Shown: positions 24,339-31,347, numbered from the stretch's first letter. The stretch: DNA of 64,000 bases from Rubrivivax sp. (GCA_021298085.1 JAJTDE010000005.1:456-64455), one strand, 5' to 3'. Made by a program: numbers and translations. Notes: generated by a model from the letters alone, not told the origin.

Positions 24339-25760
24339 TCACAGGCTGAAGATCTTGCCGGGGTTCAGGATGTTGTGCGGGTCCAGTGCGCGCTTGATCT
24401 GTCGCATCATGGCCACGCTGCCGTCGCCGGCTTCCTCCAGCAGGAAGCCCATCTTGTGCAGCCCGATGCCGTGTTCTCCGGTGCAGGTGCCTTCCAGCGC
24501 AATGGCCCGGCGCACCATCTGCATCGACAAGCGCTCGGCCGTCTCGCGCTGGGCCAGGTCACCGTCCTTGACCAGGTAGGCCAGGTGGAAGTTGCCATCA
24601 CCGACGTGGCCGACGATGTAGTACGGCAGCCCGCTGGCGTCGGCTTCCTGGATGGACACCATCAACAGCTCACCCAGCCGGGAGATGGGCACACAGGTGT
24701 CGGTGGTCACGGTGCGGCAGCCCGGGTTGGTCTGCATGCCGGCAAAGTAGGCCTTGTGGCGTGCCGTCCACAGCCGGGAGCGTTCCTCGGGTGTGGTGGC
24801 CCATTCAAAGGCCTGCCCGCCCAGCTCGCCGGTGATGTCCTGCACCGTCTTCGCCTGTTCCTGCACGCCCGCCGGTGAGCCGTGAAACTCCATCAGCAGC
24901 ATCGGCAGCTCGCGCAGGCCCAGCTTGCTCTGCGCATTGACGGCGCGCACGGCGTTGGTGTCGAGCAGCTCGCACCGCGCGATCGGCACACCCATCTGGA
25001 TGATCTGCATCACCGCCTGGACAGCGCCTCTCACCCCGTCGAAGTGGCACACCGCGGCGCTGACCGCCTCGGGCAGCGGGTACAGGCGCACCGTCAGCTC
25101 GGTGATCACACCCAGCGTGCCTTCGCTGCCCACCATCAGGCGCGTGAGGTCGTAGCCGGCGCTGCTCTTGCGGGCGCGGGTGCCGGTTCTGATCAGTTCG
25201 CCCTGGGCGGTGACGACCTGCAGCCCCAGCACGTTCTCGCGCATGGTGCCGTAGCGCACCGCGTTGGTCCCGCTGGCGCGGGTGGCGGCCATGCCGCCCA
25301 GTGACGCGTTGGCGCCAGGGTCGATCGGGAAGAACAGGCCCAGGTTGCGCACTTCCTGGTTGAGCTGTTCACGGGTCACGCCGGGCTCGACCGTCGCGGT
25401 GAGGTCTTCGGCGTGGATGTGCAGCACCCGGTTCATGCGGCTGACATCGAGGCTGATGCCGCCTTGGACAGCCAGCAGGTGGCCCTCGAGCGACGAGCCC
25501 ACGCCAAAGGGGATGACCGGCACGCGGTGTTCGGCGGCCAGTCTGACGGCCGCCTGCACGTCGTCCGCGCTTTCGCAGAAGAGCACCACCTCGGGGGGTG
25601 TCGCCGGGAAGGGTGATTCGTCGCGACCATGCTGTTCACGCACTGCGGCCGCGGTCGAGCAGCGGGCGCCGAAACGGTCGGTCAAGGCCTGCAGGAGGGC
25701 TGGCGGGACGGGGCGCAGCTGCAGCTCGGGCATCAGCTGGCCGGGCAAGGGGGCGTTCAT
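24339..25760 (-). CDS. FAD-linked oxidase (D-lactate dehydrogenase/GlcD-like)
   Basis: PFGVGSSLEGH, DPGANASLGGM, GYDLTRLMVGSEGTLG, GHVGDGNFH, GEHGIG, DPHNILNPGK. Confidence 0.92.
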   Translation of the reverse strand: MNAPLPGQLMPELQLRPVPPALLQALTDRFGARCSTAAAVREQHGRDESPFPATPPEVVLFCESADDVQAAVRLAAEHRVPVIPFGVGSSLEGHLLAVQGGISLDVSRMNRVLHIHAEDLTATVEPGVTREQLNQEVRNLGLFFPIDPGANASLGGMAATRASGTNAVRYGTMRENVLGLQVVTAQGELIRTGTRARKSSAGYDLTRLMVGSEGTLGVITELTVRLYPLPEAVSAAVCHFDGVRGAVQAVMQIIQMGVPIARCELLDTNAVRAVNAQSKLGLRELPMLLMEFHGSPAGVQEQAKTVQDITGELGGQAFEWATTPEERSRLWTARHKAYFAGMQTNPGCRTVTTDTCVPISRLGELLMVSIQEADASGLPYYIVGHVGDGNFHLAYLVKDGDLAQRETAERLSMQMVRRAIALEGTCTGEHGIGLHKMGFLLEEAGDGSVAMMRQIKRALDPHNILNPGKIFSL

Positions 25761-25896: not shown

Positions 25897-26631
25897 ATGC
25901 CTGCCTCTCCCCGCCCCGAGCGCCGCAACCTGTACCGCCAGCTCTATGTCCAGCCGGAAGCGCCGGCCGAGGTGCTCAAGGCCAGCTACCGCGCGCTGAT
26001 GAGCAGCTTGAGGCTGCACCCTGACCTGGGCGGCCCCCACGAAGTGGCCGCGCAGCTCAATGCCGCCTACGCGGTGCTGAGCGACCCGCAGCGGCGCGCC
26101 CTGTACGACCAGATGCTCAAGCGCCGCGCCCGCCAGCGCAGCGAGGCCGCCACGGCTGGCCGCCTGGCCGAGCCGGTGGCCGACCATGACCCCTTGCTGT
26201 GGCAGGAGCAGCGGCGCTGCCCGCTGTGTGCGGCGCGCCTCATGCTGCAGCCACCTCGCAACCCGCGTTGTGTGCGTTGCGACAGCCCCCTGACGCCGGC
26301 CCCGAGTGCAGCCTTGGCCGAAGGCGAACTGCTGGGCCGCCGGCGGGGCGACCGCTACCTGCGCCCTCAGGACGCCCAGCTGCGCCTGGCCGACAAGCTG
26401 GAAAGCTTCCCGGCCCGGGTGAAGGACCTCTCCATGACTGGCATCTCCCTGCTGGTGCGGGCGCCGGTGAAGCTGGGCAGCCCGTTCCGGGTGCAGGCCA
26501 GCGGCTTCGACGCCGTGGCCGTGGCCGTGGCGCTGCGGCCGCAGGGCCAGCGGGTCTGTGTGCATGCTCGTCTGGTGACCCTGCAGGTGCTGCGCCAGGC
26601 GCGCGGTACCCTGGTCGATGCCGAGGCCTGA
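25897..26631 (+). CDS. J-domain protein fused to CxxC...CxxC Zn-ribbon and PilZ domain
   Basis: HPD at 26017-26025 in J-domain context; CPLC and CVRC; RRGDR (RxxxR) and DLSMTG (DxSxxG) PilZ motifs; start 25870 or 25897. Confidence 0.8.
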   Translation: MPASPRPERRNLYRQLYVQPEAPAEVLKASYRALMSSLRLHPDLGGPHEVAAQLNAAYAVLSDPQRRALYDQMLKRRARQRSEAATAGRLAEPVADHDPLLWQEQRRCPLCAARLMLQPPRNPRCVRCDSPLTPAPSAALAEGELLGRRRGDRYLRPQDAQLRLADKLESFPARVKDLSMTGISLLVRAPVKLGSPFRVQASGFDAVAVAVALRPQGQRVCVHARLVTLQVLRQARGTLVDAEA

Positions 26632-26653
26632 GCCGCATCGGCACAATGCACCC

Positions 26654-27259
26654 ATGGGACAACGCCTGACGCAAATCGCCACCCGCACCGGAGACGGGGG
26701 CACCACTGGCCTCGGCGACGGCACCCGGGTCCCGAAGGACCACCTGCGTGTGCATGCGATGGGTGACGTCGACGAGCTGAATTCCAGCCTGGGTGTCATC
26801 CTGGCCGAACCGCTGCCCGCCGATGTGCGCGAGCTGCTGGTGGTCATCCAGCACGAGCTCTTCAACCTGGGTGGCGAGCTCTCGATCCCCGGTTTCAGCC
26901 TGCTGAAGGACGAGGCCGTCGCCCGCCTGGACGCCGCGCTGGAACAGCACAACGCCCGGCTGCCGAAGCTGCAGGAATTCATCCTGCCGGCGGGCAGCCG
27001 CAGCGCGGCGCTGGCCCATGTCAGCCGCACCGTGGCCCGGCGTGCCGAGCGTTCGCTGATCACCCTGGCCGCCCAGGAGCCGGTGAACGAGGCCCCCCGC
27101 CTTTACCTCAACCGCCTGTCGGACCTGCTGTTTGTGCTGTCGCGGGTGCTCAACCGCGCCAACCTCGACGGCCTGGGTGGCGACGACGTCTACTGGCGCA
27201 GCGAGCGTCTGGCGCGTGCCGAGGCCAGCCCCCAGGACGCCGTCGACGACACGCGCTGA
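26654..27259 (+). CDS. ATP:cob(I)alamin adenosyltransferase (PduO type)
   Basis: IATRTGDGGTT.L.DG.RV.KD, GDVDELNS, R.VARRAER, YLNRLSD.LF. Confidence 0.93.
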   Translation: MGQRLTQIATRTGDGGTTGLGDGTRVPKDHLRVHAMGDVDELNSSLGVILAEPLPADVRELLVVIQHELFNLGGELSIPGFSLLKDEAVARLDAALEQHNARLPKLQEFILPAGSRSAALAHVSRTVARRAERSLITLAAQEPVNEAPRLYLNRLSDLLFVLSRVLNRANLDGLGGDDVYWRSERLARAEASPQDAVDDTR

Positions 27260-28415: not shown

Positions 28416-28453
28416 GTCGGGTGCTCCTGATGGTGGTGGTGGTGGTGGCGGGC

Positions 28454-28484
28454 AAAAAAAAACCGCCGGGGTTCCGGCGGTTTT
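28454..28484 (-). terminator. Attenuator terminator upstream of DAHP synthase
   Basis: Minus strand AAAA-CCGCCGG-AACC-CCGGCGG-TTTTTTTTT, 39 nt upstream of the aroG ATG. Confidence 0.88.
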
Positions 28485-28508
28485 CTGGGTGCTTCGCGTG
28501 GTCTGCGT

Positions 28509-28586
28509 TTACGCGTTTGCCTCTCCAGCCGCCAGACGGGGCGAGAACCAAAAGTACGTAAAAAAGTAGGCACGGGCGCGACGCAT
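28509..28586 (-). CDS. Aromatic-amino-acid leader peptide (25 aa, MRRARAYFFTYFWFSPRLAAGEANA)
   Basis: Hand translation; 7 of 8 consecutive codons are Tyr/Phe/Trp; stops 25 nt before the terminator; overlaps antiterminator arm. Confidence 0.85.
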   Translation of the reverse strand: MRRARAYFFTYFWFSPRLAAGEANA

Positions 28587-28592
28587 GGTGTG

Positions 28593-28601
28593 ACTGTAGC
28601 A
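28593..28601 (-). promoter_or_regulatory. Putative extended -10 element (TGn-TACAGT) giving a leaderless transcript for the leader peptide
   Basis: TGCTACAGT followed by 6 nt (CACACC) then ATG; no SD before the leader ATG. Confidence 0.5.
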
Positions 28602-28658
28602 CGCAGGCCCCGGCGCGGTGCTGACGCTTCGCGCGTCGCGCCCTCAGCGCGCGGCCGA

Positions 28659-29753
28659 TCACGGCATCTGCAGCGTGAACCGCGTCTGGGCCTCCGCCTG
28701 GCCGTTGATCAGCAGCACCAGGCCTTGTTCGCCGGCGTAGTAGCGCCGCGTGCTGATGGGCTTGATGGGGTGCTGGCGGGTGAGCACGCAGCGCTCGCCC
28801 GGCTGCAGCTCGCGTTGCCAGCCCTTGAAGACCTTGGGCGCCAGGCGACCGTCGGCCTTGCGGAAGTGCATCGCATAGTCCAGCAGCAGGCGCTGCGGCC
28901 CGGCCTCGCGGCTGGCCACCAGCGTGACGGTGATCGCCAGCGAGCCGCCCAGGCTCAGCGTGTGGGGCGCCACGTCCAGCCGGGCCTGGCCGGCCCACGC
29001 CGCGCCCACGCCCCAGAGGTCCAGCACCTCGGGGTGGCCCTGCTTGATCAGGCTGCGGCTGGCATGGCGCAGCAACACACGCCGGTGCTCGCTGGCCCCG
29101 GGCAGGTGCTGCCGCAGCCAGTCGACCAGCCGCGCCGGGTGGTCCTTGGCGATGTCGTTCAGGTGGTTGGCGACGCTGCGGCGGACGTATTCGCTGGCGT
29201 CGTCCTGCAGCGTGCGCAGCAGGGGCAGGCTGGGCGAAGGGTCCTGCACCAGGGGTTGCAGGCGTTCACCCCAGGGCAGGCGCGGGCGTGTGCCCTCGCT
29301 GACCAAGCGCCGCACATGCTCGTTCGGGTCGCTCGCCCAGCGCGCGAGGGTGCCAAAGACGAGCTCCGGGTGCCGCAGGACAAACGGGCGGATGGCCCAT
29401 TCGGCGGTGAAGCCCTGCGTCAGCCGGTGCAGTGTGCGCAAGGCCCGCTCGGGGTGGTCCAGGCCGTGGCGGCTCACCACCGACCCCACGGGCCACAGTG
29501 CCCAGCCGCGCAGGCCGTCGTCGCCGGCCATGGCGGTGTCCAGCACCGCGGCGCAGTCGTCAAAGCGGGCTGGCAGCCGTGCCTGCAGCGCATCGGCCAG
29601 GTGCTCGGCACGTGCCTTCAGGGGCAGGGCATCGAGCCCCGCCAGGGCCTGTGCCTCAAAGCCCGGCCGGTCAAAGGCTGGCCAGGCCCGCTGCAATTGC
29701 CGGCCGATGGCTTCCACGGCCTCGGCCCCCAGCAGGTGCTTCAGGGGCTCCAC
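28659..29753 (-). CDS. DNA alkylation repair protein (AlkD/AlkC-like HEAT repeat) with C-terminal beta domain
   Basis: FTAEWAIRPF, HVRRLVSEGTRPRLPW, D.SEYVRRSVANHLNDI.K; GTG start. Confidence 0.82.
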   Translation of the reverse strand: MEPLKHLLGAEAVEAIGRQLQRAWPAFDRPGFEAQALAGLDALPLKARAEHLADALQARLPARFDDCAAVLDTAMAGDDGLRGWALWPVGSVVSRHGLDHPERALRTLHRLTQGFTAEWAIRPFVLRHPELVFGTLARWASDPNEHVRRLVSEGTRPRLPWGERLQPLVQDPSPSLPLLRTLQDDASEYVRRSVANHLNDIAKDHPARLVDWLRQHLPGASEHRRVLLRHASRSLIKQGHPEVLDLWGVGAAWAGQARLDVAPHTLSLGGSLAITVTLVASREAGPQRLLLDYAMHFRKADGRLAPKVFKGWQRELQPGERCVLTRQHPIKPISTRRYYAGEQGLVLLINGQAEAQTRFTLQMP

Positions 29754-29811: not shown

Positions 29812-31275
29812 TCAGGCGGTGCCGCCGACGGTCAGGCCCTCGATCCGCAGGGTCGGCTGGCCGACACCCACGGGCACGCTCTGCCCGTCCTTGCCGCACA
29901 CACCGACACCGGTGTCGAGCTCCATGTCGTTGCCGATCATGGTCACGCGCTTGAGCGCCTCGGGCCCGTTGCCGATGATGGTGGCGCCCTTGACGGGGTA
30001 GAGGATCTTGCCCTTTTCGACCCAGAAGGCCTCGCTGGCGGAGAAGACAAACTTGCCGCTGGTGATGTCCACCTGCCCGCCGCCAAAGTTGGTGGCGTAC
30101 AGGCCGCGCTCGATGCTGGCGACGATCTCGTCGCGGCTGCGCTGGCCGCCGAGCATGTAGGTGTTGGTCATGCGGGGCATGGGCACGTGCGCATAACTTT
30201 CGCGGCGGCCATTGCCGGTGGGCTTGACGCCCATCAGGCGGGCATTGAGGCTGTCCTGGATGTAGCCCTTGAGGATGCCGTCCTCGATCAGCACGTTGCG
30301 TTGTGACGCATGGCCCTCGTCGTCGACATTCAGCGAGCCGCGGCGGTCGGGCAGGGTGCCGTCGTCCAGCACCGTGACGCCCTTGGCGGCCACCCGCTGG
30401 CCGATGCGGCCGGCAAAAACGCTGGAGCCCTTGCGGTTGAAATCGCCTTCCAGGCCGTGGCCGACGGCTTCGTGCAGCAGCACACCAGGCCAGCCCGGGC
30501 CCAGCACCACGGTCATGGCGCCAGCCGGCGCCGGGCGGCTTTCCAGGTTGGTCAGCGCCGCCTTGACGGCGTGATCGACATAGCTGGCGAGGATGTCGTC
30601 GCTGAAGGCGCCCAGGCCGAAGCGGCCGCCACCCCCGCCCGAGCCCACCTCACGACGGCCATTCTGTTCGGCGATGACGGTGACACTCACGCGCACCAGC
30701 GGGCGCACATCGGCCGCGCGCGTGCCGTCGGCGCGGGCCACCAGCACCACATCGTGTTCCGCGGCCACACCCGCCATGACCTGCACGATGCGAGGGTCCT
30801 TGGCGCGGGCCATGCGTTCCACGCGCTCCAGCAGCGCCACCTTTTGGGCGCTGTCCAGGCTGCCGATGGGGTCTGTCGGGCCGTAGAGGCTGCGGCTGGC
30901 CGACACCTTGGTCTTGGCCGGCACACGCACCCGCCGCGTCTGCCCGGCCGCCGCGATGGTGCGCACGGTGCGGGCGGCGTCCATCAGGGCCGCTTCTGAC
31001 AGGTCGTCGGAGTAGGCAAAGGCGGTCTTCTCGCCGGCCACGGCCCGCACGCCGACGCCCTGGTCGATGCTGAAGCTGCCGCTCTTGACGATGCCTTCTT
31101 CCAGGCTCCAGCCCTCGTGCCGGGTGGTCTGGAAGTACAGGTCGGCGTCGTCCACGCGGTGTTCACGGATGGTGGCCAGCGCGCGCGACAGCACGGCCTC
31201 GTCCAGGCCGAAGGGCTCCAGCATCAGCGACTGGGCAGTGGCCAGGCGTTCAAGGGTGGGTTCGCGGGAGATCAT
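29812..31275 (-). CDS. tldD: Metalloprotease TldD
   Basis: GVGVRAVAGEK, LLHEAVGHGLEGD (HExxxH), G.LNVDDEG, RMTNTYM, GGGQVD. Confidence 0.96.
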   Translation of the reverse strand: MISREPTLERLATAQSLMLEPFGLDEAVLSRALATIREHRVDDADLYFQTTRHEGWSLEEGIVKSGSFSIDQGVGVRAVAGEKTAFAYSDDLSEAALMDAARTVRTIAAAGQTRRVRVPAKTKVSASRSLYGPTDPIGSLDSAQKVALLERVERMARAKDPRIVQVMAGVAAEHDVVLVARADGTRAADVRPLVRVSVTVIAEQNGRREVGSGGGGGRFGLGAFSDDILASYVDHAVKAALTNLESRPAPAGAMTVVLGPGWPGVLLHEAVGHGLEGDFNRKGSSVFAGRIGQRVAAKGVTVLDDGTLPDRRGSLNVDDEGHASQRNVLIEDGILKGYIQDSLNARLMGVKPTGNGRRESYAHVPMPRMTNTYMLGGQRSRDEIVASIERGLYATNFGGGQVDITSGKFVFSASEAFWVEKGKILYPVKGATIIGNGPEALKRVTMIGNDMELDTGVGVCGKDGQSVPVGVGQPTLRIEGLTVGGTA

Positions 31276-31347
31276 GGGCACGGTGTCCGATCGAAGGATT
31301 CGGGAAAGTCTGATTCTAGGAAGGCCGATGGCCTTGTGGGTGACGCA

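Follow-up and report, generated by a model that had tools for sequence, protein, structure and literature searches.

Between a HEAT/DNA-alkylation-repair-like gene and the gene for 3-deoxy-7-phosphoheptulonate (DAHP) synthase of a Rubrivivax sp. genome (GCA_021298085.1) lies a minus-strand gap of 244 nucleotides (nt) that holds all parts of a leader-peptide attenuator. The gap belongs to a 64,000-nt stretch of DNA (JAJTDE010000005.1:456-64455), referred to here as the window. A sequence-only reading of the window had proposed that DAHP synthase is controlled here by an attenuator that responds to phenylalanine (Phe), tyrosine (Tyr) and tryptophan (Trp), and had described an aromatic leader open reading frame (ORF), an intrinsic terminator, an antiterminator, an upstream protector hairpin and an extended -10 promoter element directly before the leader ATG. 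Its coordinates are all right, and the five items are present on the minus strand (Table 1).

The product of the regulated gene is a member of the class I-alpha DAHP synthases (AroF/G/H), scoring 539 bits against TIGR00034 (cut-off 173.2). The nearest solved structure is the Phe-sensitive AroG of Escherichia coli (467 bits; the Tyr-sensitive AroF gives 396 bits). Against NF006723, the AroG equivalog that describes the Phe-sensitive isozyme, the score of 553.4 bits falls slightly under the curated cut-off of 568, and the allosteric specificity of the enzyme is therefore left without assignment. The enzyme is the sole DAHP synthase of the genome (5.06 Mb, 99.4% complete), which has one class-I match and, in a search for class-II enzymes (PF01474), none. 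One other PF00793 member is encoded in the genome (228.6 bits, a 321-codon open frame) and is taken for a putative KdsA.

Table 1. Features of the attenuator and of its surroundings, in window coordinates
Feature	Position	Strand	Basis or remark
Leader ORF, 25 codons and TAA, MRRARAYFFTYFWFSPRLAAGEANA	28509..28586	-	sequence and conservation in 78 loci
Regulatory block, codons 7-14: TAC TTT TTT ACG TAC TTT TGG TTC (4 Phe, 2 Tyr, 1 Trp)	28545..28568	-	
Region 1, UUCUCGCCCC, 5′ arm of the 1:2 anti-antiterminator hairpin, beginning at the last Phe codon	28538..28547	-	minimum free energy (MFE) folds
1:2 hairpin, UUCUCGCCCC/GGCGGCUGGAGAG	28519..28547	-	folds
Region 2, UCUGGCGGCUGGAGAG, pairing with region 1 or region 3	28519..28536	-	duplex and covariation tests
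Region 3, CCAG-AAAA-CCGCCGGA, antiterminator partner of region 2 and terminator 5′ arm	28473..28488	-	
Antiterminator, UCUGGCGGCUGG with CCAG(AAAA)CCGCCGGA	28536..28525 with 28488..28473	-	pairing, constrained fold
Intrinsic terminator, AAAACCGCCGG-AACC-CCGGCGGUUUU and U-run (9 U in all)	28454..28484	-	folding, covariation
Extended -10 element, TGcTACAGT, separated from the leader ATG by CACACC (6 nt)	28593..28601	-	sequence
Small spacer hairpin, CGCGU(A...)ACGCG, over the leader stop codon	28495..28515	-	present in a fold; weakly supported
Shine-Dalgarno sequence AGGAG of the DAHP synthase gene, 8 nt 5′ of its ATG	28424..28428	-	sequence
Regulated gene, class I-alpha, AroG-like DAHP synthase (aroG), 371 amino acids	27300..28415	-	profile matches
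Upstream gene, HEAT/DNA-alkylation-repair-like (Pfam PF08713)	28659..29753	-	co-oriented with the leader
PduO-type cob(I)yrinic acid a,c-diamide adenosyltransferase, convergent with aroG	26618-27259	+	gene context
FAD-linked oxidase	24339-25760	-	gene context
TldD	29812-31281	-	gene context

For comparison, orthologous DAHP synthase genes were located in 24 genomes of the same genus and in 16 other families of the order Burkholderiales, and 80 named loci were taken from public genomes. A covariance model (R1) was built from 24 sequences (alignment A1), and the structure statistics given below were computed on a 78-sequence model alignment (A3); the leader counts refer to the same number of loci.

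The six frames of the 5.06-Mb genome contain a single 8-residue window that has seven or more aromatic residues, the YFFTYFWF stretch of the leader. The leader also ranks first in a genome-wide scan for short ORFs of biased amino-acid content that are followed by a hairpin and a T-run, a scan that gave no other convincing leader. The uniqueness of the aromatic window in the genome argues that the leader did not arise by chance. A search upstream of DAHP synthase orthologues, which the sequence-only reading had suggested, finds the codons for all three amino acids conserved: Phe is present in 78/78 leaders, Tyr in 76/78 and Trp in 66/78, the 12 leaders that lack Trp including some of the Oxalobacteraceae and Bordetella types. 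Phe, at 18.6% of all leader residues, is by far the most frequent. The start codon is ATG in 76/78 loci, at the same aligned position, and all three stop codons are used (37 TAA, 22 TGA and 19 TAG). Frame 0 encodes a mean of 7.0 aromatic residues per leader versus 2.3-2.6 in the other frames, and the synonymous codons TTT and TTC, or TAC and TAT, swap freely across leaders while the amino-acid class is kept. Leaders of the same genus favor TTT over TTC (41 to 28) whereas the DAHP synthase gene has eight TTC codons and no TTT; the leader preference may reflect a rare, wobble-read Phe codon that sharpens stalling, or a constraint on the RNA.

Three helices can form in the leader RNA, and all three show compensatory change. 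The terminator is a 13-base-pair hairpin in both the MFE and the centroid folds and is 97% paired across the 78 sequences, with 56 sequences having G-C and 21 having A-U at one pair. A simple consensus scan for promoters and terminators gave nothing at the locus, which is taken as a miss of the scanner because the hairpin and U-run are plain in the sequence and in the folds. In the 1:2 hairpin, the protector hairpin of the sequence-only reading, pairing in the outer CUC:GAG helix is about 90%, and each of its three pairs has changes on both sides. The antiterminator has an essentially invariant core (99% paired) in which GGCGG of the leader pairs with CCGCC of the terminator 5′ arm. Across the core, pairing ranges from 87 to 99%, versus at most 45.5% with a slid partner. 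Immediately outside the core, 43 sequences have a C-G pair, 14 have U-A and 7 have U-G; the leader base is U in 14 of the 21 sequences with A in the arm, versus 7 of the 57 with G. The flank of the antiterminator thus tracks a G-to-A change that is also compensated in the terminator 3′ arm, a three-way covariation. Column by column the whole antiterminator is 77.6% paired, versus at most 45.5% in slid controls, and the entire structure beats all 500 column shuffles and all slid controls. Beyond the core lies a second antiterminator helix, which is CUGG:CCAG in the window and GGAGA:UCUCC, GAGG:CCUC or GGAAA:UUUCU in other lineages. The small hairpin over the leader stop codon has counterparts in relatives, where GCGU:ACGC or GCGC:GCGC recur, and its energy is no better than that of shuffled sequences (mean z -0.38).

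The placement of the codons relative to these helices is also conserved. Across the 78 leaders the aromatic block occupies -36 to -12 nt from the GGCGG core, and the leader stop codon follows the first base of GGCGG by 6-37 nt. The position of Trp is specific: in 52 leaders it falls 14-18 nt before GGCGG, where by our footprint model a stalled ribosome would leave the antiterminator core free. With a footprint assumed to extend about 12 nt beyond the first A-site base, a ribosome at Tyr11, Phe12, Trp13 or Phe14 of the window's leader masks region 1 (nt 40-49 of the RNA) and reaches to nt 43-52; the first base of the antiterminator helix is nt 51, and that of its GGCGG core is nt 54. The 1:2 hairpin stays intact under a ribosome modeled at Phe8, and with one modeled at the stop codon the 3′ part of region 2 is covered. 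Folding of the nascent RNA agrees with this arrangement. When region 4 (the 3′ arm of the terminator) is left out and the footprint is placed on Trp13, the MFE structure is the predicted 2:3 antiterminator (-27.6 kcal/mol), and the same RNA without a ribosome folds into the 1:2 hairpin with region 3 single-stranded.

Five of the six defining features of a classical ribosome-mediated attenuator are thus present, namely the cluster of aromatic codons, the terminator before the gene, the mutually exclusive antiterminator, the 1:2 hairpin and, with the assumed footprint, the spacing of codons and stop; the mechanism is a known one. We consider it highly probable that the element is a classical leader-peptide transcription attenuator that sets the expression of the sole DAHP synthase by the supply of charged aromatic tRNAs. 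We infer the start of transcription, the translation of the leader, the regulated read-through and the amino acids that signal. Transcription would begin at or beside the A of the leader ATG from the extended -10 promoter, and a ribosome would translate the 25-codon leader as RNA polymerase proceeds. When Phe-, Tyr- and Trp-tRNA are ample, the ribosome would reach the UAA and either cover region 2, have unwound it, or allow the 1:2 hairpin to re-form after release; region 3 would then be free to form the 3:4 terminator, and transcription would end at the U9 tract. When any one of these tRNAs is scarce, the ribosome would stall in codons 11-14 (Tyr-Phe-Trp-Phe) with a footprint that hides region 1 and stops immediately ahead of region 2. 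This would let region 2 (UCUGGCGGCUGG) pair with the emerging region 3 (CCAG..CCGCCGGA) and sequester the terminator 5′ arm, so that the polymerase would read through into the DAHP synthase gene. Codon content and codon placement suggest that all three amino acids signal; Phe is most likely the main signal, and a contribution of Tyr and Trp is indicated by where their codons lie.

The promoter bears on how the leader would be translated. Transcription usually starts at the seventh base after the -10 box, which here is the A of the leader ATG, and the start is therefore predicted on or next to this A. The motif TGnTAnnnT stands 6-8 nt before the leader ATG in 53/78 loci, which belong to the window's genus and to genera of the Comamonadaceae type, and the leader ATG lacks a Shine-Dalgarno sequence in the window as in the loci that carry this motif. 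The spacing suggests that the leader ORF is translated leaderless in this clade. In Burkholderia, Caballeronia and Paraburkholderia (L080, L081, L088, L089, L093, L098) and in Oxalobacteraceae (L095, L100, L103), TATAAA or TATAGT lies about 35 nt upstream of the leader ATG instead, giving a 5′ untranslated region of roughly 30 nt as estimated from the -10 position, with no obvious Shine-Dalgarno sequence. Because the placement of the -10 box varies by family, the leaderless design appears to be specific to a clade, and the mode of initiation of the leader ORF would differ between clades. A GTCAGC / TGTCAG motif recurs about 21-25 nt upstream of the -10 box (about 28625-28635 in the window), which is too distant for a normal -35 element. 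It is found at the equivalent position in other loci (L002, L003, L009, L010, L013, L042, L043, L056, L069), in some Comamonadaceae loci within an inverted repeat (for example GACAGgtaCTGTC in L056), and may be an additional transcription-factor site.

Several observations weigh against the attenuator as set out here. The leader ATG is without a Shine-Dalgarno sequence, and translation of the ORF would depend on the putative leaderless start. Over this short GC-rich span, 50-56 of the 78 sequences are open in alternative frames too, so that openness alone is no proof of leader translation. From lineage to lineage the second antiterminator helix changes place, and its column-wise pairing is just 57%. 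Since its position moves, an alignment-free duplex test was used instead, in which duplexes of region 2 and region 3 from one sequence have a mean energy of -22.75 kcal/mol versus -20.2 for permuted partners, an advantage of 2.5 kcal/mol that none of the 5000 permutations reaches (0/5000). With region 4 present, the terminator is the MFE structure at equilibrium even under a stalled ribosome. This rules out a thermodynamic switch, and since equilibrium always favors the terminator, a kinetic switch is required, like those of trp and phe attenuation. A further point is that the analogous leader of Corynebacterium glutamicum answered limitation of Phe but not of Tyr, according to a review (PMC11802643).

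That precedent also favors the strongest alternative, in which the same attenuator is a sensor of Phe only, similar to pheL, and the Tyr and Trp codons are tolerated T-rich bystanders that suit constraints on the RNA or peptide and cause no regulatory stalls. Phe is the commonest leader residue and is missing from no leader, the enzyme is nearest to the Phe-sensitive AroG, 12 of the 78 leaders lack Trp, and the regulatory codons of the C. glutamicum leader (F-Y-F) include Tyr. Against it, Tyr and Trp are retained in 76 and 66 of the 78 leaders, Trp is held at one narrow spot where a stall would free region 2, and a shortage of Tyr or Trp would go unsensed at the entry to the pathway in a genome with a sole DAHP synthase. 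We regard a Phe-only sensor as unlikely.

A structured 5′ leader RNA that responds to a protein or small ligand, in the manner of a riboswitch or of TRAP, with an untranslated ORF and aromatic codons that are incidental to a U-rich motif, would accommodate the ATG that no Shine-Dalgarno sequence precedes, the openness of the alternative frames, and the unusual invariance of the GGCGG and CCGCC primary sequences. It does not account for an ATG kept at one aligned position in 76/78 loci, for the use of all three stop codons within a narrow window after region 2, for the concentration of aromatic residues in frame 0 (7.0 versus about 2.4), or for the interchange of TTT with TTC and of TAC with TAT within an amino-acid class. 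No Rfam family matches the RNA at threshold, and the three mutually exclusive helices are exactly those of an attenuator read by a ribosome. Such an element is very improbable here. A chance assembly of unrelated parts, with a chance ORF and a hairpin that acts as a constitutive insulator or as the terminator of the co-oriented gene upstream of it, is the least probable of all, given a conserved promoter between that gene and the leader ORF, an aromatic window found once in the genome, and comparative data that contradict the upstream-gene terminator (the upstream gene adjoins DAHP synthase in just 1/109 related loci and the leader and terminator accompany DAHP synthase in 78/96).

The rarity of that neighbor indicates that the element moves with the DAHP synthase gene and not with the upstream gene, and its distribution is broad. 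An aromatic-rich leader ORF followed by a terminator precedes DAHP synthase in nearly all genomes of the same genus, and also in Rhizobacter, Roseateles, Aquabacterium, Rubrivivax, Variovorax, Acidovorax, Polaromonas, Hydrogenophaga, Ramlibacter, Limnohabitans, Comamonas, Simplicispira, Curvibacter, Rhodoferax, Ottowia, a metagenome-assembled genome labelled Bordetella, Burkholderia, Paraburkholderia, Caballeronia, Janthinobacterium, Massilia, Rugamonas and Oxalobacter. The covariance model finds the element in 78/96 related DAHP synthase loci (E < 1e-5) and in 75/301 evenly drawn Burkholderiales genomes, which represent 50/143 genera and carry about 18 family labels, a few of these with weak matches alone. 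The element is single in 74/75 of these genomes, and the one second match borders the E-value limit (9.9e-4). No leader was found upstream of the DAHP synthase homologue in Polynucleobacter, Rhodocyclaceae, Dechloromonas, Methylotenera and Ferrovum. Orthologues that are 74-76% identical to the window's enzyme lack it in L053 (a 5.8-kb contig labelled Cupriavidus necator EM36) and in three Polynucleobacter loci (L059, L060, L062), which suggests secondary loss in streamlined Polynucleobacter or, for L053, a mis-binned contig.

The RNA family is not confined to Burkholderiales. Among 300 genomes of the class, the element is present in two genomes of one family outside the order (L123, G557:C8; L124, G340:C33), upstream of a 60-61% identical DAHP synthase. 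The leader there is MNAARASFYFWYYFPKPLAEEGLRSP, with the aromatic stretch ...SFYFWYYFPKP..., and the structural parts are CUGGCGG / GCCGCCAG / CUGGCGGC-U8. Two weak matches at the class level (G409, G382) consist of the terminator alone with no DAHP synthase nearby and were discarded.

The element is not a member of the attenuator families in Rfam that come nearest to it. In a search at a permissive threshold, Phe_leader (RF01859) gives 21.8 bits (E = 0.85), mostly on the terminator, and Leu_leader (RF00512) gives 21.8 bits on the terminator only; both lie below the respective gathering scores of 55 and 50. Scans of NCBIfam and Pfam with four leader peptides matched no family. The RNA element is thus absent from Rfam, and the leader peptide has no model in Pfam or NCBIfam.

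Several characterized attenuators resemble the element in part. The E. coli pheL-type leader is Shine-Dalgarno-led. Both pheL-pheA (RF01859) and pheM-pheST of E. coli have a Phe-rich leader, alternative 1:2, 2:3 and 3:4 hairpins and an intrinsic terminator; unlike the present element, they control a gene of a terminal branch or a tRNA synthetase and not DAHP synthase. Multivalent leaders are found in enterobacteria, with Thr and Ile codons in thrL and Leu, Val and Ile codons in ilvL. As proposed here, a single leader peptide in these systems integrates the charging of several tRNAs of a shared pathway, but the amino acids and genes are others and the leaders are not leaderless. Leaderless attenuators are found in actinobacteria, where mycobacterial poly-Cys leaderless upstream ORFs act in this way. 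As predicted for the present leader, their transcripts open with the regulatory short ORF and have no Shine-Dalgarno sequence ahead of it, but these attenuators come from Gram-positive, high-GC bacteria and their start has been shown experimentally, whereas here a leaderless start in a proteobacterial clade is suggested by the extended -10 element. For ilvBNC of C. glutamicum, PMC4046766 cites the formation of a leader peptide with no ribosome-binding site.

The closest functional parallel is aroF of C. glutamicum, which encodes one of that organism's two DAHP synthases (PMC4046766) and is preceded by an attenuator with a leader peptide that contains Phe-Tyr-Phe (Mentz et al. 2013, PMC4046766). 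The leader was later named aroR (review PMC11802643), and limitation of Phe raised transcription whereas limitation of Tyr did not (Neshat et al. 2014, as described in PMC11802643). In both cases a short, mixed-aromatic leader ORF and attenuation (predicted for the present element) before DAHP synthase place the entry to the shikimate pathway under control of ribosome stalling. The likeness is functional only. C. glutamicum belongs to another phylum, its leader has three regulatory codons without Trp versus seven or eight with a position-specific Trp in the present family, and the gene regulated here is the sole DAHP synthase of its genome. The sequence-only reading had called its find the best candidate for an undescribed system, which is overstated given the classical mechanism and the precedent in C. 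glutamicum; what stands is that no description of a betaproteobacterial aroG leader was found in the full-text literature, coverage of which is incomplete, so that an earlier mention is possible.

The element is of interest for its control of a sole DAHP synthase, for a mixed Phe/Tyr/Trp sensor with a fixed Trp, for its broad spread in Burkholderiales and probably for its leaderless start. It explains how bacteria that have a single DAHP synthase, and not three isozymes under separate repression as in E. coli, could adjust entry into the pathway to the demand for all three aromatic amino acids. It is also a widespread cis-regulatory RNA family with a small ORF that could be added to Rfam, Pfam and NCBIfam. 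In strain engineering, deletion of the leader should de-attenuate aroG in Burkholderiales hosts that make aromatic compounds, and the element is a natural system for asking whether leaderless translation can couple to attenuation in proteobacteria. A more ambitious synthesis, which we hold tentatively and judge somewhat more apt to fail than to hold in every part, is that one uncatalogued and truly trivalent (Phe, Tyr, Trp) attenuator RNA family controls entry to the shikimate pathway in most Burkholderiales and in at least one other gammaproteobacterial family, with Trp at the optimal stall position and with the Comamonadaceae-type leader ORF translated leaderless. If this were true, the family would offer a proteobacterial case in which attenuation is coupled to 70S initiation on a 5′-AUG, and where a genome has one DAHP synthase it would be the sole sensor, at the level of transcription, of all three aromatic amino acids.

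The remaining observations concern the surroundings of the element. The DAHP synthase gene starts (28415) 38 nt past the terminator, after AGGAG, and a (CCA)6 microsatellite (CCACCACCACCACCACCA, 28431-28448, minus strand) occupies the spacer between the terminator and the Shine-Dalgarno sequence. In relatives the spacer consists of other C/A-rich sequences, and the distance from terminator to gene ranges from 7 to 155 nt. The PduO-type gene neighbors DAHP synthase in 23/109 related loci. Many congeners, though not the genome studied here, carry a paralogous second DAHP synthase (58-60% identical); neither a leader ORF nor a terminator is present at the paralogous gene in the congeners inspected for them (L113-L122). 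In 6/10 of these loci a -10-like sequence (GACAAT, CACAAT or GAGAAT) stands 7-8 nt before the ATG of the paralogous gene, which may itself be leaderless.

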